From: Candidatus Tantalella remota | Lineage (GTDB): Bacteria; Omnitrophota; Gorgyraeia; Tantalellales; Tantalellaceae | Length of the DNA: 64,000 nucleotides | Reading direction: 5' to 3' | Assembly: GCA_030765685.1 (NCBI GenBank) | Contig: JAVCCB010000015.1 | Coordinates: 8,113 to 72,112 of the forward strand | In this document: positions 9,001 through 64,000 of the stretch, one piece after another | Numbering within the stretch: position 1 is the stretch's first letter | How the letters are laid out: each line of letters starts with the position of its first letter | The notes under the pieces: model-generated | The model's input: the letters and a program-made list of their open reading frames with translations, nothing else | Database searches by the model: none | Told to the model about the DNA's origin: nothing | Program-made: the position numbers and the translations under genes

Positions 9001-12000
9001 CGATGCGGAGTCGATCCAGGGTATAGCAGGGGGCGCCGGTGCTCTGCCGCCCAGGAAGTTGGGTGCACCTTTCGGTATGGTGATTATGACCACGGGGGAT
9101 ACCCTTGAAGGGCTGAATAGTGCCGAGAGACAGGAGATCGCCACGGCCCTGCGCGAGAAATTTTCAGGATCTGTGCCGAAAGGGCAGAACCTGTACATCT
9201 CATTTGACGGTCTCGGTGAAGGCAGCCTGGATGAGGCGACAGGCAGGATCTCTCCGGGGTTTACCGGAGTGAAGATATTTGACGGGACTTCTTTCCAAAC
9301 CCTGTCGAGAGTGAGGGAAGAGGCGCAGAAGGATGAAGCGCCCTCCCAGGAAAGGATGGAAGAGATCCTGGGGCTCGCTGGCGAAAAGGGTAAAAGGGTG
9401 TTCAGGAAGAAGGTGGGAGAAACTAATTTTCTTGTTACTGTCGCGGATGACGGAGTCACATATGTCAGGGAGCTCGGGCCTGATGTTTACGAGCAGACGA
9501 GAAGAGAGATCTTGCGCGCGAATTCGGTTCTTTCCGCCGCCGACGCGGACAGCGTAAACGCGGGATTGCGACCGGAAGAATATATGCTGAATGCCCGGGG
9601 CGTTTTTATACAGACCGGGGGGGAAGCCAAGATTCCCCCGGTAGTAGATCTGGTAGATGTAATAGCGAAAAACAATCCCGAAAAGGAAAAAATGGAAAGA
9701 CTTCCCCTCACAAAGGAGACGGGGCTTCCACTGCGGGGTTGGAAAGGCGAGAACTTTACAGGGAAGATGCAGTTTGTGGGACGGAAACTGGCGGTTCCGG
9801 TGGAATGGGTTAAATGGAAAGCTATAGGATTTGGGCGGTGGTGCATAAAGAAAAAGGACCGGGTTAAATACCGGTTTGGTCTTGCGCGAAAAGGGAAGAA
9901 CCCGGTTTCTTCGGTTGGGTGGGGGGTCTTAAGGATTATGACCCTTCCGGTAAGTATTGGTGAGTTCCTGGTGAGGGACGCGTTGAGAAAATTCAGCCTT
10001 TGGGGACAAAAAAGAAAGATAGCTTACAGGCGCACGCTGGAGCGCTCGAAAGACAGATATCGAAGAGGCCCCCGGTATAACGCGTTGATGTATCATCTTT
10101 CTAAAGTCAGCCCTGAAAAAAAGGTCGTGAAGGCTCTTGCGAAAACGGCTATCGCGCTTATAGACCTGTTCACGGCCAAAAGGGATATTACGGTCATAGG
10201 GACATCTCTCATGATGAGTCTTTTTTATGTAGCCGCTTTCGTGGGGGGGCTGGTTTACGTTCTTCTATGGCAACTTCCTAAGATGATCTTAAAACTTTTC
10301 TTATATCATTCCTGGCATTACCCCTATGCCAAGGTTAGCGGGTGGATGGAAAAACGGGTCGCGCAAAAGGAAAAACTTCCGGAAAGGGATGATGTTATTA
10401 AGATGAGAGCGCCCGCGGCTGTCCGGGAAGGGAGATTGACGGATGAGGAAGCCGTCACCGAGGCCGAGACCTTAACTGGTAGAAAGTTAAAAACGGCGGA
10501 CAGGACCGTGGTAGAAGGAGATGTGGGGGGGTACGATGTCAGTACGACACCTTTCTTCGTGCACGGGAAAACCCATTCCGGCAGGGTCCTTCAAATAGCA
10601 AAGTTGTTGAAGTACCTCTCTCAGGCGGACCTTTACGACACACATCCATTGTTCAAAGGGACATATAGCAGGATCGCCGATGTGCTGTTCGAAATGTCCG
10701 AAGATGCCGAAAAGACTGGCAGAAAAGAAGAGGCGGAAAAACTGCGGCTTAACGCGCTGAACTACGCGAAGATCGCTGTAGCGGTCAATCGTGACGATAT
10801 GGACTCGGAGGCGTTGCAGGGGATCTTAGCCTATTCGCTCGGAGATAAGGACACGGCGAAAAAGATCTTTGCCCGGGTTATAAAAAAAGGCGCGCCCCGG
10901 AATGACTATATGAGCATGGTCTGCGCCCTGCAGGGGAAGATGCTCGAAGAAGCCGGTGATCATCGCGCGGCCGCCGCGGCTTACAACAAAGCAAGGCTAT
11001 CGGAGGTGTTCGTTCTGGGCGAAAAAATATCCATGGCCGAGAGTAAGGCTCGCTGCATGGAAAAGGTAAAAGCCAAACCGGAAAAGGATGAGGAAACTCT
11101 TGAAGGGATGCCGTCTAAGGGGAAGGTCCCGGCAGGTAAAAAATTCTCGATGAAAGAACTTTTTAATAAGAAGACCCAGACGGTCATTATGGTCGTGACG
11201 CTTATTGTCGTAACACTGGCTCTTTTGAAAGTCGCGCCCTTAATCCTGCTCGCCGGCGTTATTAAGGGGCTCCCTCTAATTGGTGGTATAGGAGCGGGGA
11301 TAGAGTCCATTGCCGCCGGTATAAGCCTCGGCCAGCTATTCACCAGCATCGCCGGAATGAAGGCTCTTATGGGTATCTCAGGAGGGCTGTATACTGTCGG
11401 TATGCTTACATCTCTTGTGACCAGGTTCGCGCTGAAACCGATGGCTGTGGGCGCATGGCGGAAGGCGCGGGATCTGGTTACGGATCCGTTCAGGATACGC
11501 AGGGCTCTGAGAAATGAGATTAACGCGGTGAAGCGGACACCGGATAAGGCGGATCCCAGGATCGAGCTTATTAAGGCATATGAGCTTTTAGGGGAGAAAA
11601 GAAAAGCCAGAAAACTTTTGAATAAGACAGCCGGGATGGTACGCACGGGCAGGCTGGCTCCGGGTGAGGAAGTGAAATTTGTCGAGTTCCTTATGGATAA
11701 GGGGGAGAAAAAAACCGCCGAGGAACTGTTTCTTATAACCTATGCGAGGGCAGCGCCTGAGGACCGGGAAAGGTTCATGGACGCAGTGCCAGTGCTCCTG
11801 AGAGGAAGACTGGCGCTTCAAAAGGAGCCGGTTGATGTGGTAAGGATGAGGGGGGAGCCCGAAGATTTTATAGAAATTGCCCTCTATTGCGCTAACCAGG
11901 TTCTCGCGCTGGACGAAGATAACACTGAAGCGCTTCTGGTAAAGCTCGAAGCGCTTGCCGGGAAATACGCTAAAGAAAAGAACATGGAGGTTCTTGGAGA

Positions 12001-24922: not shown

Positions 24923-25876
24923 ATGGCGAGACCGTTGAGGATAGAATATGAAGGAGCAGTATATCATGTAACCTCAAGAGGTAACGAAAAGAAGGATATC
25001 TATAAATCGGATCGGGATAGAGAGAGGTTTTTGGGATATCTTGAGATAGCGCATGAAAGGTTTAATATAATAATTCACGCGTTTTGTTTGTTGTCCAACC
25101 ACTATCATTTAATTGTAGAAACCCCGTGTGCTAATCTATGCAGGTTCATGCAGTTTTTAAATTCTAGCTATACAATGTATTTTAATACAAAAAGAAAGAG
25201 AAGCGGGCATCTGTTCCAAGGGAGATATAAGGCCATTCTGGTGGACAAAGACAGCTATATGCAGGAATTGAGTCGTTATACGCATTTGAATCCGATAAGA
25301 GCAAAGATAGAGAAACGTCCTGAAGATTATAGATGGAGCAGTTATAACTATTATATTAAGGATGGAAGCAAACCGGAGTATCTGGATACAGATTTCACGT
25401 TACAGTATTTCAATAATAATAGGAAAAGATACAGGGAGTTTGTCGAGGCGGGGATGACGGGGAAAACGAAGAATGTGTTTGATGAGATTAAGGCAGGATT
25501 TATTTTGGGGGATGATGATTTTGTTGAAAAAATAAAAGAGAAATATTTACAGGAAGAACAAAGACCTGAAGATCTTCCAGAACTACGAAGACTAAAAAAG
25601 AAGTATATTACCAAAGATGCAATATTGAAGGTTTTGGAGAAGGAAGCAAAAAGGGAGAAGTTAACAGCGTACTATTTGCGAAAACACACAGATGAAACAT
25701 TGCAGGGGATAGTCAAGCTGGCATACAGGGAAAAGCGCAGCAGTTCGTGTATAAGTAAAACAGTTTCAAGAATAGAAGAAAAACGACGTAAAGATAAGAG
25801 TTTTAATAAGAGGTTGGAACTTCTCGAGGAGCAAATGTCAATGTCAAGGTCTGACCCCAAAGCGGGAGGTACCTGA
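24923..25876 (+). CDS. IS200/IS605-family Y1 (HUH) transposase, RayT / REP-associated tyrosine transposase type, with a long Lys/Glu-rich C-terminal extension
   Basis: 317-aa ORF with a strong RBS. Motifs AVYHVTSRGN, HUH motif HYHLIVETP, and RYTHLNPIRAKIEKRPEDYRWSSYNYY, which carries candidate catalytic tyrosines. REP-like palindromes lie downstream in the same intergenic region. Confidence 0.85.
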   Translation: MARPLRIEYEGAVYHVTSRGNEKKDIYKSDRDRERFLGYLEIAHERFNIIIHAFCLLSNHYHLIVETPCANLCRFMQFLNSSYTMYFNTKRKRSGHLFQGRYKAILVDKDSYMQELSRYTHLNPIRAKIEKRPEDYRWSSYNYYIKDGSKPEYLDTDFTLQYFNNNRKRYREFVEAGMTGKTKNVFDEIKAGFILGDDDFVEKIKEKYLQEEQRPEDLPELRRLKKKYITKDAILKVLEKEAKREKLTAYYLRKHTDETLQGIVKLAYREKRSSSCISKTVSRIEEKRRKDKSFNKRLELLEEQMSMSRSDPKAGGT

Positions 25877-26544: not shown

Positions 26545-29500
26545 ATGGGCATCCTCAGAAAAGGGACTGGGCGACAGTCTCTACATACTGATAAGAGTGG
26601 CTACTCTGCTGCAGGGGTAAAAGCGGCGGATGAAATATATGGCGTGACGACTTGGAGAAGGCGTCATGCCTTTTTTATTAAATGTGTAAGTATTGTTGTT
26701 GCCGTTATTTTTCTGCATCAGCAGACAGGATGGGCCCAAGCGGGCAAACCTGTCTGGGCCAACGCTAAACCCTTAGCAAAAACCTACAATGAGCATATGA
26801 ACCTTAACGGGATAAATATTCCGTATGATGTCGCGAAGACCCAGGAAGTGTGCGTGAACCCGAGTGAGGATGTCATCATACACGTTCAGGACGCGCATGC
26901 TTCTCTTTCCGCGCAGCATTCCATCGTTAACCTTCTCGATTCCCTGGTGACCAATTATGATCTGAGGCTTATCGCTCTTGAGGGAGCCTCGGGGTATATC
27001 GATACGTCACTTCTTAAGACTTTCCCGGATAAAGCAATAAGGGATGATACCGCGGAGTTCATGCTTAAGGAAGGCCGGATGAACGCGGGAGAGTTCTTTG
27101 CCGTGACCAATGACGGGCCGGAAGTAGAGATATATGGTATAGAAAACGATGCTCTTTACCGTACCAATGTCGAAAGTTTCAGGAACGTGGCAAATCAAAG
27201 GGCGCGGCACGTGGCTGATGTAGAGGGAATGCTGGGGCAGCTGGAACTCTTAAGTGAAAAGATGTGTTCTGAAGAGCTTAATATGCTGAACAGTAATTCT
27301 GTTTTGCATCGCGACGGGCGTTTAAGTTTCACGGATCACTGGAAGCACATGATCTCCCTGGTGGAAAAGTATAACATAGATTTTTCCAGATATGGGGAGC
27401 TGAAAAAAATACTCATGTCCATAGAGCTTGAGGGAGAGATTAATTTTGCTAAAGCTAATCTGGAAAGAAGAAGGCTTATAGATGAGCTTAGCAGGGAGAT
27501 GGACAAGGAAGACCTCGAGCAGCTGGTACTCAGATCGCTCGCGTTTAAGCAGAATAATATTTCTCAGGGGGATTTTCACAGTTATCTGATCAGTCTGGCG
27601 GAAAAAGAAGGTATAGAAGCTGCCGGGTATGAAAACCTGATAAATTTCACACGTTATATAGCCATATACGAATCAGTGGAACTGTTCAAGCTGTATCGTG
27701 AGCTGGAATCTCTCGAAGACGCGGTGAGGGAGAGAATCTATCGCAATGACGATGAGCGTGAGATATATCATATGACCAAAATGATAAGATTGCTGAAGAA
27801 GCTATATAGTATGGAACTCGTTAATACGGAATACGTGTATTTGAGGGAGAACCTGGGCAGGGTGAGTGTGCAGGATAACGCCCGGTTTATAAGAGAAAAA
27901 TGTGATGAGTACACGGTGCCGATAGCCGGAGCATATGACCTGGGTATGATATTTGGAGACGCTGAAGGCGCTATGGATTTTTACAGGCAGGCCGAAGATA
28001 GGAACGCGGCTATGCTGGCAAACACTCTCAAAGCAATGCGTATGACCGGGAAACACGTGGCCGCGCTTGTCACCGGAGGATATCACAGCACAGGACTTTC
28101 CGAGCTGATGCAGCAGAAAAAGCTTTCGTATCTTGTGGTCATACCTAAGTTCGAAAGCGGCAAGGAGCGTCCCTATATTGCTATATTGACCAATAAAAAA
28201 CGTCCATACCAGGAGATCCTGGAAAGTGGTCAGTACCAGCTTGCCGTAGAAGCGTATTTTTCCGCTACCAAGGGTGATCTTTCACGCATGAAATCCTCGC
28301 TTTTTCACGCTCTCGGAGAAGCGGCTATAGAGGGTAAGGATATTGCCGCGATAAAGAGGATATGGGAGCAGGCGTACCGGGAGAGATACGAGACCATAGT
28401 ATCGGAGAAGCTGGATCAGATGACGTTTGCTCCGGTCACACCGGAAGCGTTCGTAAGTTTTCTCGCGAGGGTCGAGGCGCAAAGGGTCGGAGACGCCACC
28501 GTGATAGCTGACCGGACCGGCGACGGTATCACTTTTATCGCCCTGATAAGAGACGGTGAATATTACGAGTTTAATCCGGCTTCAAGGTCCCAGAGGGTAG
28601 TTGTCGCCAGAAGATTGGCTTTGCAGGAGACCAGTGCCTCGACAGCGGAGGAAGAGGGCGCTGAAGATTTCGCGAATGCCCTGCAGAAGATCAGATCCGA
28701 TGTGGCTGATATCAAGTCGATGCTAAGCAGCATCATAGATACACGCGAGGAACTGATAATACAACTGGAAGGAGTATCTCCGGCGGATATAATGGCCAGA
28801 TTGCAGGACCCCGCGAACACGACGGCAAAGGAAGTAATATCAAAACTGCGTGCCAAGCAGATCAACGTACCGGCTGACTGGGAGGGCGATGAGGAGATCT
28901 CAGAAAAAATAAACGTTCTTGTAGCGGATGTCAGGAGTTCAGCCGCCTACATAGCACGGTCAGAAGCGATCGGGGAGGATTCTGAGCAGGAACCGACGAG
29001 AAAGGCGGGGGCAGCGGAAGGCCTTTCGGAAGGGGCAGAAGAACGTGTTGAAGCGCAGCCAACACCCGATGCGGCTACAGCCGCTTACATAGAACGGTCA
29101 GAAGTGATCGGGGAGGCTTCTGAAAAGGAACCGCGTAGGAAGAGGGGGCCTCCGGGAAGTATGATGGGACTCTTGATGGTATTGGGGTTATCACTTTTTC
29201 TGAATATATCAAGTCCGTCATTGGGGAGGGCAGCTACTCCGGTAGCTCATCCGGGCGGAGCAGTACCGGAATTGGTCCAAAAAGGCAGCGATGCTATGAC
29301 ATCGCGCGTAAGGGCGACACGTGAATCTATAGCCAAGAGCAGGGGTGCCGGCGCCAGGAAACAGTTCGCTGCGGATAAACAGAAGATGCAGGACGCGATA
29401 GGCGAATACTTTGATAATTTGCGACAAACTGATTATTTCAAGGACAGGGCAGCGAGAATAGCGTCGGCCGGAGACGGCAGTGATCCTTTAGTGCTGGATA

Positions 29501-44500: not shown

Positions 44501-47500
44501 CTACCGGCCTCGCGAAATTGGGGTATTTGGGAAGCTACGCGCAGGTCATTATGACGTTCGCTCCGCCGATGTTCTGGTTTATAACGAGCGCGGCGGTGGG
44601 GCTCACGCTTTTTCTGATACCTTTCTACATCATCTTCGAGATGTCGGTTTTCGGGGCGCTTTTCTCGGGACCCGATAATGAATCTCTTGTAAGGGACGGC
44701 CTGGATCGGATGAAGGAAACGGCCGAGAAATTTCAAAACTATAAAATATCTGTCGAGGCGAGGAGACTCTCGGGGATACTTAAGTACAGGCCTGAAGACA
44801 AAGAGGCGATAGAAGAAAGCGTGGCGAGCATGAGGGAATTGCTCTTTGAACTAAGCTCCCCGGATGATACGCCGGAAGAAGCGGATCTACGCGCTTTTGA
44901 CGAGAGGGATATGGACAAGAACTGGCGCGTGCAGAGCGTTCTTGACGCGGTCCTTGACGGCAGTCGGGATACGACGCAACTCAGGCGGGACCTGAACCAG
45001 ATAGCGAGGGATAAAGCTATCTCGCTTAACCCGAGCCTTCAGGTGAGGGTTAAGATAATGGAACATATAGACAAAGCTTTCGATAAGTTCGCCGTGACCG
45101 ACAGTTATTCATATGATGACATGATAAAGGTACTGTCGGATATGCGGGAAGGCAGGCTTGGTTTTAATAAGGGCTGGCAGATCGATATGTTTGACGACGC
45201 GGTAATGAGGTTCACGAAAGCTGTCGAGACACAGAAGCCCGCTACGCTTGAGGATGCCGTAAAGATACACGAAGAGGAAATGCGTCTTATTGGCGACGCT
45301 ATTTCGACTAAGATCGCGGAAATCAGAGGGAGGTATGACGAAGTAATAGCCGGAAAGATCTCTTTCGGTTCCCGCGCCGCCATGATGGCGGCAGGTCTCA
45401 TCGCGGGTGCCGCGGTACTTTGGGCGAAGAACCTGATAATTCCCGGAGTGGCCGTGACTATGATAATCTCGGGCATAGCCCTGAGCGCTCTGTGGCTTAC
45501 GTCAAGGGCGGGGATAAAAATGGGTATTGGTATGATGCCCTATTTTTACCTGAAACAGGTAGTCATATCCCTGCAGATAGCCGTACTTTATTTTATACAC
45601 ATGATCCCGGCAGCGAAAATAACGCTGGAGCAGATATGGGCGAGGCGTGACAACTGGTGGTCGAGGACGTCTCATGATGAGAGAGAGATACTCCCGGAAT
45701 CAAGGGCCAGATACGGTGAAAAGGTCAGGGCGAACATCCGGGAGATGTTTACCCGTAGAGAGAGGGTAGGAAGGTCTATGTTCGAGACGCCCGCGGTATC
45801 GTTCGCCTTTTTTCTGGCCTCTATGACGTTTTTACTGCTTTTGATAAATAACGGTCTTACCTGGCGCATGAGGGACGCGGCGGTTGTCGGGCTCTTTCTG
45901 TCATCTGTGCCGCTTATCTGGAATACTCTGATGCTGCGTTTTGACGAGGTGGGAAAAAGCCAGTTTTTCAGGCCCGCTATAAGTCTGGCGGGAGCGGGGT
46001 TTGTTATTGCCTCCGCCGGCCTGGTCTCACTGGGGCTGAAGACGATGGGGTATCCGCTTTTTGTCGCGCCTTTTGCCTTTGAGGCCACGGTAGCTCTTGT
46101 GGGCATAGCGATGCTTTCGGCCGCTATATTTACGCCGAAAGACCGCCTCCGAGAGATATACATGAACATATACAATAAGTGGATGCTTTACGCGGTCGTT
46201 CTCGGCCCCGCTACGGCGATGCTTGTTCTGCTGCCTTTTGGTCAAAATCTGCTCGAGGGCAGAAAAACCAGGTTTATCGAAGATAACGTAAATCCTATGG
46301 TAGAGATATACCACGCTTCGCGTTCGGGAGATATATATTTTTCCACGGAAGATGTTATGTGGAGACTCGCGCAGGGTATGCCGGCAGAAGGGAAAAGCCA
46401 GGCTGAGCTTGAAGATTTCAGGAAGAGAGCGTCGATCATAAGGCAGATGGCACGCATGAGGGATGAAGGTATAACCAACACTGACATAGCCGAGAACCTG
46501 ATAAACGCTTTTAAGGATTGTCCGTATCCTTCCGGACCCGATGGCCTGGCGGGATGGGTGCGGATAAACGCGGATATTTTCGCGGTAAAAGCGGGTATAG
46601 CTAAAGGCACGCTTCATGTCCAGAAACTTAAAGATTATTACGAGAAACAGATAGAAGTATACGGTTTTGACCGGACAAAAACCGACCTGGCCAGGAGGTA
46701 TATAGAGTCTATCGAAGCCTATGAGAAAGACGAAGTGGAAAGGGGAATATCCGACCGCGAGTTGCGGGGTGATTATGATCTTATACGTATACAGCTCGAA
46801 GCATACCGAAGGCTTCTTATGGAAACCGGCGATCCCGCGGCGCAGTTAAAATATCTGCATATAGTGGGTATTGTGGAGAACAGTATAGAAGGCGTGGGGA
46901 TCTCCGAAGTATGGAACCTTCCTTCTGTGGAATATGAGGATTTTGAGCTGTCCTTCTACAAAAAGGAATACCTGACCACGGTAGACCACGTGTCTTCCGG
47001 GGCCAGGAAAGAGCAGATGCCGGAAGCCCTGGATGAGGATGCTATAGTTACGGATCCGGTAAAAGGAGAGATAACAGCCAAAATAAATATTTCCAGAGAA
47101 AGAAGAAGTAACGTTATAGGGTTGAACGTACAGGATATGCTGGGCAGGCCCTTAGCGGAAGACGAACAGATGGTACTCACAGTTACGGTCCCGGAAAAGT
47201 TCGTTACCGGAAACCCCATGGCAAGCATATCACTGCAGGGAGTCTGGAGTGATTCCGGGGGGAACTGGCAGCATGGTGCCCATAACATTGTGTTCGGTGA
47301 AAGACCGCTGGCTGACGGTCAATACAAATACAACATAGCTATAAGTCCTCTTGATGAATATGACAGTTATCAGTTCGGTTATTATACCGACGGAGGTTTT
47401 AGCCCCAATTCCGCGGATATGAAAGTAGCCGGGATAAGGGTGCTGATAGGTAATGCCGATCAGATACAGGATAGTTTTGAAGGCGAGATAACGATACAGG

Positions 47501-50500
47501 GACGGATACGAAAAGTGCAGAAGATGGAAAAACCACTGAACGTGAGAGGCGACGCGACCGGTGGAGAGGAATTCCGGAAGAACTCGGGGATGAGCATAGG
47601 CCTTTCTTTTCATGACGTCGGGAAGTGGGGCGCCGCTGAGCATGACGGGTTCTCTTCCGAACAGGGGAAAGCGAAGCTGAGAGAAACATTCCGCAATTTT
47701 GCCGAGGACGGAATAATGAATGTGAGGATGCAGTCGCTTTTCGGCGACGGCAGGGCCGGTCTTGTTTTTGATGACGCGGGCAATTTTACAGGATTTGATG
47801 ATTATGTGGAGTCAGATATTCTCGCTCTTTTTGAGGTGCTGGATGAGATACGGGTGGATTATCCCGAGTTCAAGATAATGCCGGTTCTTTTCAGTTTTGA
47901 GCTGGCTGACGGGACCACCTCGGAGAATGGTTTTACTATAGGGGAGCACCCGGAACTTTTAACCGATAGTGAGAACAGGGATGTTCTTCTGAGTGAATTG
48001 AACAGGGTTTTCGGAATAGTCTGGGGGCATGAGGGCGTGACAGCGTGGGATCTGTTCAATGAACCGGAGATAGCCCACAACACAATGGATGCTGAAGGTA
48101 ACCGTGTCCTGAATATAGGCGAAGTGCAGGAATTCGTAAGGCTTCTGGCCCCCGACATACAGAGACAGGGCGGAGACGTGACCGTAGGAAGTTTTACCCG
48201 GACACAGATGCTTAATAACTGGCTTGATTCGCCGCTGGATCTCTTGCAGTTCCACTGGTACGACAAGTCACCGTATAACGATATTAACTTCTTAAAAGCA
48301 TGGATGTCTGACGGGCGTCCGGTAATAGCGGGTGAGATAGGCGCGCTGGGGAAATTCCCGGTACAGTTGCAGGGCGGCGATATACGCGATATTGCCGAGA
48401 TGTTGAGAAGAAGCGGGGTAAACGGCGCTTATCCGTGGCAGGATTGGGGAAAATATGACAGGGGTACTTCCAGGAATTATGCTAAATGGCTCGAAAGCCA
48501 GTCCAAACGGCCGGTATCCGTTCCGGAGGAAGCTGAAGCTCCGGTAGTGAAACCGGTTTCCGCTCCGGAGGGGAAACCTCTGCCGCCGGTATCGATGAGG
48601 CCTGCGAGGCCGGTTATCCCAAAGAAACTTTTTCGCGGGCAGTTGCCCCGGCGTACCGGCATGATGGGGCTTATCCTGGCTATAGGCACTGTTTTTATGG
48701 CGGCAGGGCAGGGAAGCGCGGTTGCCGGTGAAGTGGCTATGCCGGTTGCTTTTACGGGAGCGGTAGCTCAGATAGTTTCAACGGCAGGAACTATGGTTGT
48801 TGAGGAAACAGGACCAGGTGTTATTTTTGCTCTGGCGGAGAGGGTCACGGCCGGACAGCTTCTGCCTTATGCCATAGGGCTGGTTGTATTGGTGGGACTT
48901 ATGGCGTTTACAGTGTATCTCGCGAGAAAGAGAACGCGTAAGGAGATAGAAGATCAGTTCGCTGTTGAAAGGCGGGAACTGATAGATGCGCGGAGGATAG
49001 GTGCCATAGAAAACGATGATGTCCGGGAAATGGAAGCGATGCTTATGGAGGATACCGAGTTCGGTACCGCCGCGCGGGACGAGATAGCCAGGTTGAAGGC
49101 GATCGGAGATACGGCAGATCTTGATAAGTTCATAAGAGAGACGTTTATCCAGCGTTTTAATATAGACCTTACAAGGACAGCTTTGACCAGGGAGGATTAT
49201 AAAAAAAGAGGATACGACACGATCATCATAAGTTCTTCTTCAGCGGACGATGCCGCGGCGAAAAAGCTGGCGGTACAGAGGATGTTCCGGGGGCTTCCGG
49301 TAGAGATATTCTCCGAAGTTGTATCGAATGACGGCGGCCAGATAATGGGGCATATGACAGTGCTTGAAGCGGCCAGAGAGAACGGCCTGGACCTTGATGA
49401 GATGTTCTCCAAAAAGGGCGGTCCAAAGGTAGCCGTATGGCATGACGGCGGAATGGCTTCAAGGTTCAGCCCCATAACTCCTTCGTTGAACGATGCCAGG
49501 GGCTTACAGGACCTAGTGGGAAGATTCGAAAATTCCCGTCTTGAGATGACCGACGCGGAACTTCTTTTTATGGTAATGCTCAACAGTCTGGATTTTGGTA
49601 GTACAAGTACGGCGACCACCGTGGACACTTTCTGGACCAGCCAGATAGTAGCGGGAACCGTGGCTCACAGCATGATAGAGCGTAGTGACGCGCCTTTCGT
49701 AAAATTTCTGGTGCCCATAGACTGGGATGTTCCTAAGGATCTTTTGTATAAGCAGCTTCTGCAGTTCGGAACCGTCACGACGGATGAGAACGGGTATATA
49801 AGGAATTTTTATGGGAATCAGAAGAAAAGTTGTATAAGAAAAGCCAAAGACGGCACGCTTGAGATCAACCCGGACCATCAGTACATATATGACGATCTGA
49901 AAAGCGCGCCGACGGCGTATTTTGATTTCGGATCGTTCAGTATGAATAATGCCATGCTAAAGGCGCTTTACGATTACTGGATGAAAAAGACCGCGCTGGA
50001 TGACGATGGTAACGAGTACCGTATAATCAGAAAAGCTGTTGAGACCGGTGTCGTAGCAAAAGAGTTGAAACGCGATATAGATCCGCATTTCACCCAACCT
50101 CTCGCGTTCCTGCTGCAGGCGATAGTAAGTGAAAGGAATTTGGGCAGGGATATGCTTGAGGGGATCACTCCCGTGGATGCTTTCAGGCAGTATACGGGTG
50201 AGGAGAGGAGGCTCCAGCTGCAGAAACAGGTGGCGCTTATTAGGCAAAGGCTGCCGGGCGGGGCGAGGGTCAGGATGGGTGAGTTTTTTGAAGAAGAAGT
50301 AGAGATCGAAGATGCTGAGAAACCCGGAGAAAAGAAAAAAGTAAAACAGATCGTAATAGATAAAAACACCGGAAACCCTGAAGAAAAGATACTTGATCCA
50401 GTCACAGAGACCATAGAGATATTCCTCCTGAATAGAGACAATCCCGATATCTTCCCCGAAGACCTGAGTAGGACCCTGGGATCCATAAGTCTGGGGCAGA

Positions 50501-53500: not shown

Positions 53501-56500
53501 TGGGTGGATTGGCCGCGACGGTGACAATGGGCCGCGGCGCCATGGCGATAATACTTTCCTTTATCAAGGAAGACGGCAGTATTAAGCTCGTGCCGGAAGA
53601 AGAATATCCAAAAGATATATCCACGGCCCAGGCTACCGGAGAAGAATATCGGCAGGCTCATACCAACAGGCGGATACGCGCCGATATCCTGGGAGGAAGA
53701 TATGTTCTTATCAAGGTAGACGACGAAGGAGAGCTGTATCTTGAGACCAAAGGTGACAACGCCAAAGGTGTACGCAGGGATTTCAATGATAAACTTAACG
53801 CGATCAGCGATAACGAAGAGTTAAAAGCTTTCCTGGCGAAGAACAAACATCTCATCGAAGACCTTGAGATATATCTGGTGGAACCCGAACCCGGAGCTCC
53901 CGATTCGGTTCACCCGAGCCTCCTCACGTGCGACGGTCGTAACTGGCAGGTAGCGGTTTCGGGAAGCAACGGAGGAAGGTCCCAGTCAGTCTACATGACG
54001 AGGGAGTTCTTTGAGAGCATGTCGGTAGAAGACGTATTATTGCCGGTGTTGTACAACCAGATAACCCGGGCGATCATGTTGTACAGGTACTGGCATCTTC
54101 ATCCGGATATAGCGTATCCGGCAGGAAAACATACTTCACAGATACAGCGTTTCGTAGACGAGATAGTTAATACCGGTCCGGTGAGGACTGAGCTTGATAA
54201 TGTGATCCGGGATCAGATAAGGCTGAGAGAAGAGCTGGATGTAGATGAGGGGATGAGAGCTCAGCTGATATCTCTTATGGAAGCGATCATAGAAGAGAAT
54301 CAGTTTGAGGATGAGTCCGGTCGTAAACAGAAATATAAGGCTTTTATGGATCTCAGAGATGAGCTGATGAAATTTAACAGGAGTATAGAAGAACCCGATT
54401 ATGATAAGGCAGTTGAAGTGTGGGGAAAAATAAGCTACAGGGTCAACAGTATGCTCAGGGAAGGGCATGCTATGTACGATGTCGTCAGAGGCATAAATAA
54501 GATGAAACTTATTCGCGGTATTGCCAGGGAGATAAGCGGCATACTGGAACAATATGTGGCAGAGTTTGGCATATACAGGAGTGAAGGAGCGATCGAGAGA
54601 GGTCAGGCCGTCGGCAAAGTCGTTGTTATTGACAAGGTCGAGGATATAGAGGGCAGGCTGAACGATATAACGGGTGATGAAATATGGGTCCTGCCGATAC
54701 TTACGATACGCGCCCCTTATCTGGAAGGACGAGGTATTATTGTAAGCGCCGGCCAGGGAGGGCACGCGCGCCAGGTGGCCTCTGATAAGGCCCTGCCGCT
54801 GGCCAATATCCCGAACGCGATCGAATGTCTTAAACAGTTTGATGGCCAGTGGGGTATGCTCAGGGTCGAGCCCAACGGCATAGTACGTTTCAGGCCGGCC
54901 CATAAGGATGAGATAGATACGCGTGATGAATATGTGCGAAAACCGGAGGCGAAAAAAGTCGAGATCCCTAAACCTGTTCTGGGTGTGGATGTGCCTCTTG
55001 CATACGATCTGGAAGACGTCGATAAATTCTATATAAACAGGGTAGGCGCCAAGGCCGCCAATCTCGGCCATATGCTAAATAACGGTTTCGCTGAGTATAT
55101 CCCGCCGGGAGCCGCGCTTTCTTTTGAGTTCTCGTCAAGATTTATGAATACTCAGAATACTGAAGGCGTTTCGTTGAGGGACAGGATAAAGGCGATCATA
55201 GAGGATATTCCCGTTGAACGGGGAAAGGTCACGGACGAAGATCTCTTTCTGGAGATCCTCGAAAAGGCCAGAAATGAAATAATGAACACGCCTCTTGAGG
55301 GAGAAAATGGTGAGCTTAAAGAGGCGGTTCTGGCGTCAATAAGGAGGATCAGGGGAAAGGCTGGTTTGCTGGAACCAATGACTGAAGAAGAACAGTCAAA
55401 GATCCTGGAAGCGGTGAAAAAAGTAATAGCTACGAAATACACGGAAACCGCGGTCAGGTTGCGGCTCGATAATCAGGTGGCGGATGAGGACGTGTACGCG
55501 GGTATCGTATTGCAGATAGTCGGTTCTGACGCGGAGCCGGTAACCACGGATCGGCCGCAGATATCAGGTACGATCTCCACCTTTAACCCGCTTTCCACCA
55601 GCAAGGGTGAGATACATATATCTGGAGGGCCCGGAGTAGGGGCGGTCGTAGATGATGAGGGGCTTCCGGCACAGGTGATAGTCAATAAGGTCACAGGAAA
55701 GATAACTATAGTAAAGAGCACATCGGATGAAGATACCATGACAGTGCCCCAGCCCGGGACTTTTCTCGCTCGATCCTCCTTTAACTTTGAAGATCTTTTG
55801 GAGCTTTCCGGAGCCGGACAGTATGAATCTTATGCTGACCGCGAAACGAGAGAGGCGGGAGTCCCGTCGACACTGAAACAGGTCATATCAAAAGATCTGG
55901 CAACGCGTCTGGCTGATATAGGGAAAAAGATGGAACTCTTGTATGGGTACTGGCCGCAGGATATAGAGTGGACCGTGACGCCGGGCGGAAAGTTGTTCCT
56001 TGTACAGACACGATCCATCCCGGATGGAGTACCCCATGATGTTGGAGAACCCAAGCTTCTCTATACGGACATTTATAAAGATATGCTGCCCCTGGTCACG
56101 GATGAACAACTTAAACAACTGCGGGAATTGAAGCGTGAACGCAATGCACCGGCGCTGCTTGATCTGATCCAGATTGGAAAGATGGATTTTGAGTTATATA
56201 GGAACAAGGCGGAACTCGGTACGCGGATCATCGCGGTTTCGTATTTGGAAAGTTTACTTGCCAAAGATAAAACGATTGGCGAGGGGTTGACCGAAGAGAC
56301 AGTCGACGCCATGATGGCATATGCTTTAAATCCGTCTAATATGCTAACTGCCCCGGGTATGTTAAAAGCTTTGTCTCATCTATCTGATTCCCTCCGGCAC
56401 AGGGAGCGGCTGAAACTGCAGGCAGAGATGGCCGATATAGAAATGGGTACCGGTATAGGCGGTCACTTAGGCTGGCTCGCCTTTGCCGAATTCGCTTCCA

Positions 56501-58855: not shown

Positions 58856-58980
58856 AGTACAGTAATTAGCCATACAAAAAGTAAGAATTTTCCGAACTGT
58901 TTGGTGATCTTAAAAAGGTCAAGAACGGGAAGGGATTCGTATACTCTGAGAAAGTCAAACCCTTTAATAAGTGGGAGTTT

Positions 58981-61900
58981 ATGAGTAGAGATCACAAAAT
59001 TTTCAAAATTATCGCGCTTGTCGTCGCGGGTATTTTCCTGTATCAGCAGATAGTATGGGCCGCTGGGGATATGGCTAATACCGCGCATATGGCGTCAGGT
59101 GATCATGGCCTGCCCATTGCCGCGCCTATCAATATCTCAGAAGAGCTTGCCCAGACAGAGACTATACAGATCTCCGGTAGCGGTGAAACGATAATCAACA
59201 TTCAGGATTGTCACTCCTCTCTTTCAGCGCAGTATTCAATAGTAGAGATACTCGAAGAACTGATGAATAATTTTAACATGAACGTTGTCGCCGTCGAAGG
59301 CGGACACGGGTACCTTGATACGTCCATACTCAAGAGTATGCCGGACAGCGGGATCCGCGAAAAGACCGCTGAATACCTGATGAAAGAAGGCAGGATATCC
59401 GCCGGTGAATTTTTTGCCGCGACGACAGATAAAGATGTAGCTATATACGGTGTCGAGAATAACGACCTTTATCAGGAAAACGTAAACGTCTTTCGGGAGA
59501 TACACGCGGGAAACCGCTCTAACATAGAGGATATTAATTCTCTTATAGAGGAACTTAAAATAAAGGAAAAGGAAGTTTACTCAGACAGTCTGATAAAACT
59601 GGTATATAAGTCCCGTCTTCATCAGAGCGATAGGATAACCTTCGATGTGTATTGGGATTTCTTAAAGGACGCGTGCGAGGCGGCCGGGGTTGCCACGGAT
59701 CAGTACGTTAATATAAACAGTTTTACCGAGTCAGTACAGCTGGAAAAAAGCATAGATTTTGATAAGGCTACCGACCAGAGGAAAGCTCTTATCGGTCTTC
59801 TTATGGCAGAGCTGAATAAGGAAGGGCTGGAAGAACTTGTCTTAAAGTCTGTCTCTTTCGAGAAAGGGGAGATCGATCAGGCGGAGTACCATAGATGGCT
59901 TCTGGATTTTGCCGGGACAAGGTGGGTCGAGACCTCGGCCTTTACGGAGCTTTGCAAATTTTCAAAATATGCTACAGAGTACAGAAAGCTCGATGTGATA
60001 GGTCTTTCCAGAGAACTTGATGGGGCTGAAAAAGAACTTCTTAAAAGATCATTTTCATCCGATAAAGAAAAGGAGCTTTACAGACTTATCAGGATATTGG
60101 AACTTGTTAAGTCACTGTTCAATATAGAACTTTCGAGAGAAGATCTTAGCGCGTTGACGCGTTACCTGGAGATGGTCTCCGCGGAAGAATATACGGGATA
60201 TTCCAGGGAAGATGACCTCTCGGAGGAACGCCTGGATGGCATATTCGCTGAAGCGAAACAAGCGTTAGAGTTTTACCGCCTGGCAGAGATTCGTAATCAG
60301 GCTATGATCGAGAACACTGTCAAGGCTATGCGTGAAGAGGGACGGCAGGTAGCCGCGCTTATATCGGGAGGGCATCATGCTGAAGGCCTTACCGGAATAA
60401 TGAAGGAAAAAGGATTATCTTATTTAGTGCTTATGCCGAGGGTAACGGGAGACAAGTCCCGTCCGTATGTGGCTGTTCTTACGAAAAAGACCGGCCCGTA
60501 CAAGGAACTGATATCAAGCGGAGAGTACGATCTGGCGCTTCAGGCGCTGTTCGATTCGGGGTCTCTCGCGGAACTTGACGATATGTTCGTCTACTGGTAC
60601 GACCAGACGCTCGCCTCCGGAGAGGATATGCGGAAGGCCATCGATCAGATGGTGCTTAATTACAGAGATATACAGGAAGGTATTTCCGCATCCCGCCGCG
60701 CGGCCATGGATTTTGATCCGGTGAAACCGGAAGAGCTTAAGAATTATCTGGAGTCTATAACGAAGGACGAAGAGACAGGGTCGATAACGACGGAAAACGG
60801 AGTGTACAACGTAACGGAGAAGGGAATAAAGCTCGAAAGACGCGTTAAGAAAGTATCCAAGGATGAGATAACCGGCGCGGGTATGATACCCGCGATACGG
60901 TATATCCTGGAGAAGCGAAACATATCTCTTAAGCATCAGGCCTGGATGGAGCAGTCACTTTTCTGGGGGATAAACCTGAGTGTCGTCGGGATGATGTCAT
61001 CCAACGTCATGCTCGGGACGCTGATCACGTGGATGACATTCATGATGGCTCATTTTTTTAAGACTAAGGACATGCCAAACGCTCCTCCGTCGTCTTCGGT
61101 CATTACGGTAGGGCTCATAAACGCACTTTTCGCCGCCGCAAGCGTATCGTCCTTTAATATCCCGGTAATAATAATCTCTTTTATAGTAGCAACTCTTATC
61201 CACCATTTCGCGAATATCAAAGGCGAAGTGCCGGGGCTTAAATACGTTATAAATGCTTTTGAGAATCTGTCTTTCGTGAAAAGTATACGTTTGTCATTAG
61301 AGATCAAAGCCACCACGGATGAGAAGGAGAAGCTCGTTCTTATCGCGAGGAGACAGGGGCTTGAGTTGACCCCGGAAGACCTTAAGGACCTGGATGACCA
61401 GTTTTTCCGAAATGTTACGAGTACATTGCTGGAAAGCGCCCGGGAGATGCGTATGAGTCCCGGGATGCTGAAGGAATTATACAGACCGACGCGTGTTACG
61501 GAGATAAGCATACCGGTAAAAATGGATTCTGGAGAGACAAAGACATTTGACGGATACAGGATATTGCATAATGACGCGCGAGGGGCGGGTAAGGGAGGCA
61601 TAAGGTTCCATCCCGCTGTTACGCGTGGCATGGTAAGAGCTCTCGCTACCGATATGACATGGAAGAACGCTATAGTCGGTATACCGTTCGGCGGGGGAAA
61701 AGGCGGTATCACGGTCGATCCGAGAGAGATGTCAGAGACCGAGATGGAAAAGCTTTGCCGGGGGTATGTGAGGGAATTGCTTAAGAAAAATCCCAGAGCC
61801 ATAGGTGTTTTTGATGATGTGCCGGCTCCGGATGTCGGTTCCACCGCGCGGCACATGGCATGGATGCGTGACGAATACGAGAAGATAAAGGAAATAGAGG

Positions 61901-64000
61901 ATGATTCCGCCGCTGGCGTGATCACGGGGAAACCTATAGATCAGGGCGGGTCGGAAGGGCGTACGAAAGCGACAGGGCAGGGAGTGTATTTCGCGGCACG
62001 CGAAGCCATAAAAACTTTTGGCGATAATCTCGACATAGGGGCGGATATGACCAAATGCACCTACTCCTTTCAGGGAGCAGGTAATGTAGCTTTCGAAGCC
62101 ATAAAGATATTTTTCGCCGCCGGCTGTACGAAGATCCATTACATGAGCGACGTGTCGGGCGGAATACACATGACGAACGGCCTGGACGAAAAACTGCTCG
62201 CCGCGCTCGAGAAACATCTTTCCAGCAAAGCCCTTCTTGAGGAGTTCGAGTATGAAGGAGTAGAGCATGTTCCAGGCGCAGCGGTGCTGGAAGCCGATGT
62301 GGACGTACTTATACCGGCGGCTCTGCAGAACCAGATAACAGTCGAAAATGCCGATAAGGTTAAAGCCAGGCTTATCATTGAAGGGGCGAACGGTCCGACT
62401 ACTCCGGAAGCTGATGAGATACTTTTTAGTAATGGACAGGTAGCTGTCCCCGATATACTGGCTAATGCCGGTGGTGTAACGGTATCCTACCTGGAATGGT
62501 TACAGAATATACAGAGAGAACATTGGGCGCTTCCGGCTATAGATAAGATGCTGGAAGAAAGGATGTCGATAGCATTTATGAACGTGGTCAAGACTGCCCG
62601 CGCGTATAGGACTGATCTTCGTACGGGCGCGATGCTTCTGGCTCTCAAAAAGGCCGCGGATGCCGAGACGGCCAGAAAATTTGGGGCATCCCGGAATAAA
62701 AGGGAGAAAAGATCATATAGGTCAAAAGTAAACCTGTATTCTCCGGATACATTCGAAGAGCTTAATTTCATAATAGATAAAGGAAAATATAAGAAGCTTA
62801 TCAGAAACCTTGAGAGGCGCAAAAGGCGGGAGCTAGAGTATACGGTTCAGGAGATAGAGGAAAAGTTTTCAGGCGCGGAAGGAGTGGTGCTTATCACCGG
62901 TCCCGTAGCTGTAGGCAAAGCCGCATTGGCGCAAAACCTCAGGAGATCCCTTATGCTTAACGGCCGCAAAGCTAAGGTACTTCACCTGGACGGTCATGGA
63001 CATGATATCAGTGACGCTGAACGTCTTCTTAGCGGTGCTACTGTGGGCGTTAGTCCGGCGGAACAGTTCTATTATGAGGAAGACGTAGAAGAGCTCAAGC
63101 TTGAAGAGAATGACATACTTATTATAGAGGGTGCGGAAGCTTTCGCGCCGAAGATAACGGAACTGCTGGCTGGAAGAGGAAAACCCACATATAAGATTTT
63201 CATGAACACGGCGCCTTCGATGAAACTGAGGGACAACTATCCGCTGACCTCACTGCACGCACGCATGATGAGAGACATACTTGACAGAAGGATCACGGAG
63301 AACAAAAGACCGTCGGAGACGCTTTTGCCGATAGTAAGGGGGCGCAGCACTCAGTTGGATTTACTGTATCCGAGATGGGTGATGGCAGACAAGACCATAG
63401 GCGCATATATGCCATATGAACTTCCGATACTTAAAAGAGAGATCTGGGAGGATCTTCAGGAAGACCTTGAGAGTGTGCGGACGGAGCTGTTGCGCGCGAA
63501 AAAACACTCCGAACACAATAATTCTGAGTATATAGAGGAGATATCGACAGTTCTTAAGAATATGGAAGACCTTTATTATCTTCTTGAGCCCGTTGCGGCT
63601 GCGCCGGAAGATATTAATTTGCCTAAATGGTCCATAATGAGGCAGTTTCTGAGTCCGGAGAAGAAAGAAGAATTTAAGATGGTAGACCTTGTGAAGGCGG
63701 CCGGTCTTATCGTGGTGGCTGCTTTTGCTATGGCGGTGTTCACACCGCTGATATCAATGGCCGCGGATATGTCGGTGCCGAAAGCGGCATTGCTCTCATT
63801 GCTTCTATTAAGTTTCCTGGCAACGACGGGGCTCGGGGTGTATTCTATCGCAAAGGGAGGCGCCAGGGGACAGAGGAATGGAGCTTTGCTGGTTATGATC
63901 GCCATGCTGGGCGTGATCGTGGGCTCTTCCACATACCATATGGAATACGGCCTGCAGGCAGGTTCCCGGAGAGCAGAACAGACCGATCTCACGCAGAAGA
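58981..64000 (+). CDS. Third giant-type ORF, 3'-partial (>=1673 aa, runs off window end). Contains an N-terminal signal-anchor plus TraB/GumN-like module, a TM block, an ELFV-type glutamate dehydrogenase domain, a uridine-kinase-like P-loop domain and a C-terminal TM block.
   Basis: Translated codon by codon from ATG 58981 to the window end with no stop codon. Good RBS. Not listed in the ORF track only because it has no stop in the window. Confidence 0.9.
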   Translation, partial: MSRDHKIFKIIALVVAGIFLYQQIVWAAGDMANTAHMASGDHGLPIAAPINISEELAQTETIQISGSGETIINIQDCHSSLSAQYSIVEILEELMNNFNMNVVAVEGGHGYLDTSILKSMPDSGIREKTAEYLMKEGRISAGEFFAATTDKDVAIYGVENNDLYQENVNVFREIHAGNRSNIEDINSLIEELKIKEKEVYSDSLIKLVYKSRLHQSDRITFDVYWDFLKDACEAAGVATDQYVNINSFTESVQLEKSIDFDKATDQRKALIGLLMAELNKEGLEELVLKSVSFEKGEIDQAEYHRWLLDFAGTRWVETSAFTELCKFSKYATEYRKLDVIGLSRELDGAEKELLKRSFSSDKEKELYRLIRILELVKSLFNIELSREDLSALTRYLEMVSAEEYTGYSREDDLSEERLDGIFAEAKQALEFYRLAEIRNQAMIENTVKAMREEGRQVAALISGGHHAEGLTGIMKEKGLSYLVLMPRVTGDKSRPYVAVLTKKTGPYKELISSGEYDLALQALFDSGSLAELDDMFVYWYDQTLASGEDMRKAIDQMVLNYRDIQEGISASRRAAMDFDPVKPEELKNYLESITKDEETGSITTENGVYNVTEKGIKLERRVKKVSKDEITGAGMIPAIRYILEKRNISLKHQAWMEQSLFWGINLSVVGMMSSNVMLGTLITWMTFMMAHFFKTKDMPNAPPSSSVITVGLINALFAAASVSSFNIPVIIISFIVATLIHHFANIKGEVPGLKYVINAFENLSFVKSIRLSLEIKATTDEKEKLVLIARRQGLELTPEDLKDLDDQFFRNVTSTLLESAREMRMSPGMLKELYRPTRVTEISIPVKMDSGETKTFDGYRILHNDARGAGKGGIRFHPAVTRGMVRALATDMTWKNAIVGIPFGGGKGGITVDPREMSETEMEKLCRGYVRELLKKNPRAIGVFDDVPAPDVGSTARHMAWMRDEYEKIKEIEDDSAAGVITGKPIDQGGSEGRTKATGQGVYFAAREAIKTFGDNLDIGADMTKCTYSFQGAGNVAFEAIKIFFAAGCTKIHYMSDVSGGIHMTNGLDEKLLAALEKHLSSKALLEEFEYEGVEHVPGAAVLEADVDVLIPAALQNQITVENADKVKARLIIEGANGPTTPEADEILFSNGQVAVPDILANAGGVTVSYLEWLQNIQREHWALPAIDKMLEERMSIAFMNVVKTARAYRTDLRTGAMLLALKKAADAETARKFGASRNKREKRSYRSKVNLYSPDTFEELNFIIDKGKYKKLIRNLERRKRRELEYTVQEIEEKFSGAEGVVLITGPVAVGKAALAQNLRRSLMLNGRKAKVLHLDGHGHDISDAERLLSGATVGVSPAEQFYYEEDVEELKLEENDILIIEGAEAFAPKITELLAGRGKPTYKIFMNTAPSMKLRDNYPLTSLHARMMRDILDRRITENKRPSETLLPIVRGRSTQLDLLYPRWVMADKTIGAYMPYELPILKREIWEDLQEDLESVRTELLRAKKHSEHNNSEYIEEISTVLKNMEDLYYLLEPVAAAPEDINLPKWSIMRQFLSPEKKEEFKMVDLVKAAGLIVVAAFAMAVFTPLISMAADMSVPKAALLSLLLLSFLATTGLGVYSIAKGGARGQRNGALLVMIAMLGVIVGSSTYHMEYGLQAGSRRAEQTDLTQK
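59011..60560 (+). other. N-terminal module of ORF3 (anchor helix KIIALVVAGIFLYQQIVWAAG plus TraB/GumN-like domain), paralogous to ORF2 aa 40-580
   Basis: IINIQDCHSSLSAQYSIVEIL...NVVAVEGGHGYLDTSILK...EGRISAGEFFAAT...VAALISGGHHAEGLTGIMKEKGLSYLVLMPRVTGDKSRPYVAVLTKKTGPYKELISSGEYDLALQALF aligns block by block with the ORF2 N-terminus. Confidence 0.5.
61390..62680 (+). other. Glu/Leu/Phe/Val (ELFV)-family amino-acid dehydrogenase domain (glutamate-dehydrogenase-like), complete, embedded in ORF3
   Basis: PTRVTEISIPVKMDSGETKTFDGYRILHNDARGAGKGGIRFHPAV. IPFGGGKGGITVDP with the catalytic Lys (61687-61710). VPAPDVGST. Cofactor Rossmann segment FQGAGNVAFEA. C-terminal ANAGGVTVSYLEWLQN. Confidence 0.85.
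62884..63470 (+). other. P-loop NTPase domain resembling the uridine kinase / phosphoribulokinase family (Walker A has Ala instead of Ser/Thr; may be degenerate)
   Basis: VVLITGPVAVGKAALAQNL (GxxxxGKA). DILIIEGAEAF parallels dvvivEGilal. KIFMNTAPSMKLRDN...RMMRDILDRR parallels iFvDtdadvRLaRRi.RD. RPSETLLP...LLYPRWVMADKTI. Confidence 0.35.

Follow-up and report, generated by a model that had tools for sequence, protein, structure and literature searches.

The DNA analyzed here, referred to as the window, is a stretch of 64,000 nucleotides (nt) from Candidatus Tantalella remota, a member of the Omnitrophota, and it carries on its plus strand the giant open reading frames (ORFs) ORF1 and ORF2 (Table 1). 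ORF2 encodes a giant protein predicted to cross the membrane many times, and the subject of this work is one module of that protein, a domain resembling glycoside hydrolase (GH) family 5 of clan GH-A, which is followed by a Pro-rich linker and hydrophobic segments. In the ORF2 frame, the motif stretch of the domain reads ...AWDLFNEPEIA...LLQFHWYDK...PVIAGEIGALG..., in which F-H-W-Y corresponds to amino acids (aa) 7236-7239 (nt 48250-48261), A-G-E-I-G to aa 7262-7266 (nt 48328-48342), and G-E-I-G to aa 7263-7266. His7237 lies 64 residues after Glu7173, and Glu7264 lies 27 residues after His7237, giving a distance of 91 residues between the two Glu residues.

An earlier reading of the same DNA from its letters alone (the sequence-only reading) had listed the N-E-P, H-x-Y, and GE(I)G motifs of ORF2 as correctly spaced, and all of them were found in the plus-strand frame of ORF2. 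The same reading had placed the domain at 47600-48470; the domain does lie there, although the envelope of the family hidden Markov model (HMM) is somewhat wider (47566-48519). ORF1 and ORF2 together comprise 18.6k residues, and the NEP..HxY..GE pattern at this spacing is found in them only once; of 2000 composition-preserving shuffles, only 8 contained the triple. A search of both giant proteins with the family HMM revealed no further copy of the domain.

Table 1. Features of the window, beginning with the GH5-like domain and its surroundings in ORF2 (window coordinates)
Feature	Position	ORF2 residues	Strand	Remarks
GH5-like (clan GH-A) (beta/alpha)8 domain	47566-48519	7008-7325	+	Family HMM envelope; ~320 residues
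N-E-P	48058-48066	7172-7174	+	C-terminal end of strand 4; Glu7173 (48061-48063), predicted general acid/base
H-W-Y	48253-48261	7237-7239	+	Strand 6; His7237 and Tyr7239
G-E	48331-48336		+	Strand 7; Glu7264 (48334-48336), predicted catalytic nucleophile
Pro-rich linker	48508-48630	7322-7362	+	11 Pro in 41 residues (27%); ends in K/R-rich KKLFRGQLPRR
Hydrophobic segment A	48661-48732	7373-7396	+	Kyte-Doolittle 1.71 (aa 7376-7394); signal-peptide-like, positive n-region, A-V-A/G site
Hydrophobic segment B	48745-48801	7401-7419	+	Weaker, Kyte-Doolittle 1.59; possible third membrane pass
Transmembrane helix C	48859-48924	7439-7460	+	Strong, Kyte-Doolittle 2.33 (aa 7439-7457); then RKRTRK, predicted cytoplasmic
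Segment upstream of the catalytic domain	47092-47544	~6850-7000	+	Beta-strand-rich by eye
PPDK_N (pyruvate phosphate dikinase ATP-binding)	~55036-56019	9498-9825	+	Pfam E = 2.6e-23
ORF2	26545-57873		+	Uninterrupted ORF, 10,442 aa; giant multi-pass membrane protein hosting the GH5-like domain
ORF1	47-24619		+	Second giant gene, 8190 aa
IS200-like Y1 transposase ORF	24923-25876		+	317 aa; PF01797, E = 1e-10; in the gap between ORF1 and ORF2
Third large ORF	~58885-64000		+	At least 1705 aa; continues past the end of the window

Homologues and active-site conservation

To retrieve homologues, a library of 1.84 billion cluster representatives was searched exhaustively with HMMER. At E ≤ 1e-3, 405 proteins matched, of which 199 also passed E ≤ 1e-10 and 5 passed E ≤ 1e-30. 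Since 405 homologues were obtained, the GH5-like region is a conserved domain and not a chance motif. The best match, P0001, shares 48% identity with the ORF2 domain (the query; E = 1.5e-68). A word-indexed search returned 0 proteins for the single query sequence and only 8 and 4 when alignments were used. The cluster representatives span Omnitrophota, Planctomycetota, Acidobacteriota, Melainabacteria, Elusimicrobiota, and others. At the level of genomes, the module has its top relatives mainly in metagenome-assembled genomes of Candidatus Omnitrophota (33-35% identity), with further ones in Hydrogenedentota, Planctomycetia, Anaerolineae, Elusimicrobiota, Melainabacteria, and Vicinamibacterales. 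Many of the homologues are standalone proteins of 300-450 aa, and many are very long, as exemplified by P0004 (5101 aa), P0053 (7866 aa), P0058 (7201 aa), and P0129 (7255 aa).

P0001 itself is a contig-limited fragment in which the GH5-like domain is followed by a linker, a second region (aa ~490-790), and then a membrane helix. By its sequence ('CDAVRVHFGM...IKLEIALLDMAF'), the second region resembles a further TIM-barrel module in a more degenerate form.

Conservation was computed over 138 aligned relatives, with positions given in domain numbering (domain position + 6999 = ORF2 residue number). R62, D69, R71, D92, N173, E174, P175, E176, H238, Y240, E265, and W299 are all kept in the query, each being conserved in 85-99% of the relatives. 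In N-E-P, conservation amounts to 95% for Asn, 98% for Glu, and 96% for Pro; in H-x-Y, it reaches 99% for His and 94% for Tyr, and the nucleophile Glu7264 is conserved in 96%. The His/Tyr pair conserved in GH5 positions the nucleophile. Beyond the two Glu residues, the GH5 active-site set (R62, N173, H238, Y240, and W299) is complete in the query, and each of its members is 94-99% conserved.

Relationship to GH5 enzymes

The link to GH5 was examined through the relatives of the query. Ten of the 30 relatives sampled matched PF00150 at E ≤ 0.01 (best, 7.4e-9), and at least five of the scanned relatives scored above its 23.5-bit cut-off (P0038, 34.2; P0028, 29.3; P0003, 26.8; P0021 and P0062, 24.8 each). 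The only other Pfam GH families that the sampled relatives matched were GH2_C and GH42, both of which belong to clan GH-A. Two profiles were then searched against the PDB: a family profile, consisting of the query and 29 relatives, and a subclade profile, consisting of the query and its three nearest relatives. The family profile matched 2c0h (E = 2.8e-46), 3vup (1.8e-39), 5y6t (1.1e-38), and 4oou (1.9e-36), and its weaker matches were GH5_7 mannanases and, marginally, other clan GH-A enzymes. In the alignment with 2c0h, 'wdviNEPE' faces 'WDIMNEPE', 'fyQfHyYd' faces 'FYQVHTYD', and 'viiGEf' faces 'MVIGEF'. The subclade profile also placed 2c0h at the top (E = 4.8e-7, residues 32-303 against 28-328) with NEPE, HxY, and GE in register, and its remaining PDB matches were all GH5 or GH2. 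Profile drift was considered as a source of the GH5 match and was rejected, since the subclade-only profile still places 2c0h first.

The fold was predicted with AlphaFold (AF2). A single-sequence run was uninformative, with a predicted local distance difference test (pLDDT) score of 40; with the 30-sequence alignment, the model reached a pLDDT of 85.7 and a predicted template modeling (pTM) score of 0.89. Its strands cover domain residues 17-19, 60-63, 111-118, 169-173, 213-217, 235-239, 261-266, and 295-300, with a helix after each of them. Strand 2 bears R62, strand 6 bears H238 and Y240, strand 7 bears E265, and strand 8 bears W299; N173 and E174 are found where strand 4 ends. The modeled domain has the clan GH-A ('4/7') layout of a (beta/alpha)8 barrel. 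When the model was compared with the PDB by Foldseek, 4oou, 4ooz, and 2c0h came first (E ~1e-14), followed by other GH5 mannan-active enzymes; the 50 matches listed of 755 at E ≤ 1e-3 were all TIM-barrel glycosidases.

These data supported three claims of the sequence-only reading. The assignment to a GH5-like glycosidase of clan GH-A is borne out by the GH5 mannanase profile matches with their catalytic motifs in register and by the PF00150 matches among the relatives; the catalytic Glu residues, which were expected to agree with the GH5 consensus, align to NEPE and GE of 2c0h; and the (beta/alpha)8 glycosidase fold is seen in a confident model that carries Glu at the ends of strands 4 and 7 and has GH5 and clan GH-A enzymes at the top of the Foldseek results.

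Comparison with characterized enzymes pointed to the GH5_10 endo-beta-1,4-mannanases, namely, those of Mytilus edulis (Man5A, 2c0h), Aplysia kurodai (3vup), Eisenia fetida (5y6t), and Cryptopygus antarcticus (4oou). They provide the best profile matches as well as the best Foldseek matches (E ~1e-14, TM score 0.66), they have NEPE, HxY, and GE in register, and at the level of the family they share the strand-1 'N..W.NY..DFG' and the strand-2 'VR'. In contrast to these enzymes, the query shows ~17% identity and falls below PF00150 detection, its strand-1 motif is replaced by 'GLSFHDVG', its segment between strands 4 and 6 is shorter, and an extra loop follows the nucleophile strand. Moreover, the GH5_10 mannanases are small secreted enzymes, whereas the query domain sits inside a membrane protein of 10,442 aa. 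The domain thus appears closest to GH5_10, the sole basis for naming a subfamily being that GH5_10 structures are its best profile and fold matches. 2c0h is the representative structure of GH5_10 and is assigned EC 3.2.1.78 (PMC3526467). GH5_10 comprises metazoan enzymes and bacterial members, the latter having no documented activity except for one Fibrobacter enzyme acting on AZCL-galactomannan (PMC3526467; PMC5576741), and one of its members has turned into a xylanase (PMC5576741). Because identity is ~17%, because GH5_10 includes that xylanase, and because residues at the barrel top are remodelled, mannanase specificity is not transferable to the query. The earlier proposal of a cellulase, mannanase, or other glycanase-like activity therefore holds at the level of a predicted GH5 glycanase, whose nearest characterized enzymes are beta-1,4-mannanases.

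The GH5_7 beta-mannanases and beta-mannosidases (T. reesei 1qno, tomato 1rh9, and P. anserina 3ziz) and the GH5_18 beta-mannosidases (BlMan5B) resemble the domain in fold and in catalytic layout and form the second tier of profile and Foldseek matches. They differ from it in a much weaker similarity (family profile E of 1e-12 to 1e-5) and in their loops.

Membrane setting and giant-protein context

Downstream of the domain, the linker reads RPVSVPEEAEAPVVKPVSAPEGKPLPPVSMRPARPVIPKKL, and the 'KKxFRG' at its end is also found in the closest fragment, P0002. A Pro-rich linker with a membrane anchor at 48660-48960 had been anticipated by the sequence-only reading, and both were recovered, the anchor in the form of hydrophobic segments at 48661-48924.

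Topology was assessed from Kyte-Doolittle hydropathy and loop charge. The loop at ORF2 aa 6358-6415 is strongly K/R-rich and was taken as cytoplasmic, and it is followed by helices at 6416, 6446, 6478, 6510, and 6547 with alternating loop charge. With that loop inside and five helices after it, aa 6566-7375, including the GH5 module, would therefore lie outside. The chain would then return to the inside by way of one or three of the segments A, B, and C, and the RKRTRK after helix C would be located there. On these grounds, the GH5-like module probably faces outward. Its relatives have a comparable setting: full-length standalone ones mostly start with a signal- or lipoprotein-like hydrophobic N terminus, and ~35 of ~80 genome loci show an ORF with one N-terminal hydrophobic segment and no other predicted transmembrane segment ahead of the domain. 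In longer relatives, the partner domains are FG-GAP, subtilase S8, right-handed beta-helix, RHS, CarboxypepD_reg, BACON, and InlB-type repeats, all typical extracellular modules.

ORF2 contains two internal segments that resemble signal peptides, one at aa 871-893 (29155-29223; RRKRGPPGSMMGLLMVLGLSLF...) and the other coinciding with segment A (PRRTGMMGLILAIGTVFMAAGQGSAVA/G). Both have a positive n-region and share a 'MMGL' core, and the second carries an AxA-type site. Such segments might mark points of polyprotein processing.

Four of the very long homologues, P0004, P0058, P0129, and P0053, share further blocks with ORF2 (aa 20-880, 2118-4114, 8804-8986, and 10040-10442) at 25-46% identity. 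They also carry the GH5-like module, at differing positions and in a different module order, which indicates module shuffling within a giant-protein family. Giant Omnitrophota proteins have been reported to contain GH domains and were proposed to break down the polysaccharides on the surface of target cells (West-Roberts et al. 2023 preprint); adhesion has also been proposed as a role of giant ORFs. In the literature consulted on Omnitrophota giant proteins, GH76-like and lytic transglycosylase-like modules are named, whereas GH5, mannanase, and cellulase go unmentioned. A cell-wall-degrading role in predation, as envisaged by the sequence-only reading, would be consistent with that literature.

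Among known systems, the 'Archaeovorins' (West-Roberts et al. 2023 preprint), such as the giant protein of V. archaeovorus, are similar in being giant and multi-pass and in their content of glycosyltransferase (GT), GH, TPR, and SecA_DEAD domains. ORF1 (8190 aa) and ORF2 (10,442 aa) are both longer than the ~7,000 aa typical of such proteins and have many hydrophobic segments, and the domain set of ORF1 resembles the 'Archaeovorin'-type description: Metallophos (aa 273-515), SecA_DEAD (aa 1550-1694), several TPR stretches, and, at its end, a GT2 domain (aa ~7396-7484) with membrane helices on both flanks. Unlike the GH modules reported for 'Archaeovorins', the GH5-like module is invisible to the HMM libraries that were used for them.

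Within ORF2, hydropathy revealed ~30 hydrophobic segments, and PPDK_N is the sole above-threshold Pfam match in aa 1-10000. The C-terminal part of ORF2 around PPDK_N is expected to be cytoplasmic because this domain is ATP dependent, which limits how many times the chain can cross the membrane at aa 8846-9007. Pfam gave no match for aa 5601-6569, and the flanks of the GH5-like domain (aa 6570-7006 and 7461-8840) had none among PDB sequences. The segment immediately upstream of the domain may be a putative carbohydrate-binding module; it matched neither Pfam nor a PDB sequence and is not kept in the closest relatives.

Elsewhere in the window, the N-terminal anchor of the third large ORF, KIFKIIALVVAGIFLYQQIVWAA, is similar to FFIKCVSIVVAVIFLHQQTGWAQA of ORF2, which suggests that the two are tandem paralogous giant genes. 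GC skew is +0.09 to +0.30 and AT skew is also positive in nearly all 2-kb windows, such that the coding strand is purine-rich throughout. Dozens of minus-strand ORFs of 150-300 aa are wholly contained in the giant ORFs, and the purine-rich composition most likely gives rise to them as artefacts.

Predicted function and its alternatives

We consider it likely that the domain is an active retaining GH5 glycanase, extracytoplasmic and held on a Pro-rich tether, that cuts a beta-1,4-linked glycan outside the cell. The mechanism proposed is modeled on the established GH5 double displacement: Glu7264 on strand 7 would attack the anomeric carbon to form a glycosyl-enzyme intermediate, and Glu7173 of N-E-P on strand 4 would act first as the general acid and then as the base, in a -1 subsite predicted to be built by Asn7172, Arg7061, His7237, Tyr7239, and Trp7298. 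The GH5 module would be one of many that make up the giant multi-pass membrane protein, in a bacterium of the Omnitrophota type. It would be located near the membrane, at the outer face of the cytoplasmic membrane, from which a tether of ~40 Pro-rich residues would lead to one or three passes and a cytoplasmic chain beyond them. The substrate would be a beta-1,4-linked glycan, be it mannan-like or a related gluco- or xylo-configured polymer, and the enzyme could act on a surface or matrix polysaccharide belonging either to a host or prey cell or to the environment.

Several observations weigh against this reading. The query itself had no match in Pfam, PF00150 included, even at E ≤ 1, it belonged to no NCBIfam family, and phmmer against the PDB found no glycosidase. 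Thus, the search with PF00150 (Cellulase), which the sequence-only reading had suggested as a check, was negative on the query. That reading would also have abandoned the domain for lack of any clan GH-A hit; the query alone indeed yields none, but intermediate sequences and structure do connect it to GH5, and because the connection is visible only by that route, a strict use of the rule would wrongly reject the domain. By Foldseek, the query and the nearest solved structures are no more than 16-17% identical. Near the barrel top, the query departs from the family consensus (N18S, Y22S, G23F, F65S, D118S, and Y293V), with a further departure at A100L. The classical GH5 set has a conserved His where strand 3 ends; the query lacks one and reads L-F-S-F-E there, and 95% of the relatives have L-x-D-F. 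A K/R patch precedes segment A, and the positive-inside rule would favor a cytoplasmic domain if only A and C span the membrane. The genes next to standalone relatives in four genomes have no common theme (oxidoreductase, two-component system, radical SAM, and Na/H exchanger). Finally, beta-mannan is not known to be a major wall polymer of bacteria or archaea.

As for the sequence deviations, the 'GSFHDVG' and 'LFSFE' variants and the extra loops of the query are common to its closest relatives P0001 and P0003, and the deviations are therefore features of a conserved subclade rather than signs of decay. In the family profile alignment, 2c0h likewise aligns no His at the end of strand 3, and this His may not be defining for the mannanase branch.

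The alternative that survives best, though we judge it unlikely, is that the same active GH5-like enzyme trims or releases the bacterium's own secreted polysaccharide or coat, in the manner of BcsZ, PslG, and PgaB. Hydrolases are standard parts of synthase-dependent exopolysaccharide systems, and BcsZ (GH8), PslG (GH39), and PgaB (GH153) are the periplasmic ones of such machines. A functional analogy is possible in that a hydrolase would be physically coupled to a membrane polysaccharide apparatus, as may be the case for P0003 (L081 784-4017, complete with 1077 aa). In this protein, the second-closest full-length relative, a multi-pass N-terminal part with a weak Glyco_trans_2_3 (GT2_3) match is fused to a GH5-like domain of the same subclade, which makes it a possible synthase-hydrolase fusion; in the window, the adjacent giant ORF1 ends in its GT2 domain with membrane helices. 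However, the GT2_3 match of P0003 is sub-threshold (23.1 bits versus the Pfam cut-off of 27), and a comparison of its N-terminal part with ORF1 and ORF2 revealed no homology. In the remaining multi-domain relatives that were examined, the modules are extracellular ones of the adhesion or toxin type and not synthases, and no polysaccharide-export genes were seen beside the standalone relatives of the four genomes. Pfam gave no match for the gene upstream of P0003, for P0158, or for P0159. Furthermore, BcsZ, PslG, and PgaB belong to other GH families.

It is improbable that the domain is cytoplasmic, with segments A and C forming a hairpin whose two ends are inside and the enzyme processing imported or intracellular oligosaccharides beside the downstream enzyme-like regions. 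Charge does fit such an in-out-in hairpin: 4 of the 15 residues preceding segment A are K or R, as are 5 of the 15 following segment C, and the loop between A and C is acidic. Intracellular enzymes exist in GH5_7 (PMC3526467), and nearly half of long Omnitrophota proteins are transmembrane-only and have cytoplasmic domains (2026 preprint). Against it, the loop-charge tracing of the upstream eight-helix cluster puts the GH5 segment outside, the family overwhelmingly bears signal peptides or is joined to extracellular modules, and segment B, at its hydropathy of 1.59, is able to serve as a third pass. It is hardly credible that the barrel is a pseudo-enzyme with no catalytic activity, retained only in an adhesin for carbohydrate binding or structure: several family-conserved residues at the active-site face are replaced in the query and adhesion figures among the roles proposed for giant ORFs, but both catalytic Glu residues, the Asn before the acid/base, the His/Tyr pair, the Arg, and the Trp are all kept, and the replacements are common to the conserved subclade rather than scattered.

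We put forward, tentatively and as a possibility that is itself doubtful, that the query, P0001, P0002, and P0003 constitute a new GH5 subfamily that HMM libraries have missed. Its substrate face would be remodelled, with 'GSFHDVG' for 'N.PW.NYG.DFG' on strand 1, Ser for the Asp of the family on strand 3, and an additional loop following the nucleophile. Its specificity could have shifted away from beta-mannan toward a surface glycan of prokaryotes, or it could have become part of a synthase-fused machine. If so, its substrates could be, for example, the glycan of an archaeal sheath or S-layer or the capsule of a bacterium, and the domain, built into giant membrane proteins, would be a cutting tool of an epibiotic predator; the synthase-fused alternative, as in P0003, would amount to a self-contained machine that makes and trims a polysaccharide.

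Taken together, the domain is a real, very divergent member of GH5, found in a setting in which GH modules are already expected. No new principle is involved, and the result is a useful annotation rather than a surprise. It draws attention to widespread bacterial relatives of the GH5_10 mannanases, represented by the 405 cluster representatives, that PF00150 and NCBIfam have largely missed. Giant Omnitrophota proteins are nearly blank to standard annotation, and a GH5-type stretch of ~320 residues offers a small piece of one of them that is expressible and biochemically testable. Since the module recurs in related giant proteins, the hypothesis that these proteins degrade surface polysaccharides becomes experimentally approachable.

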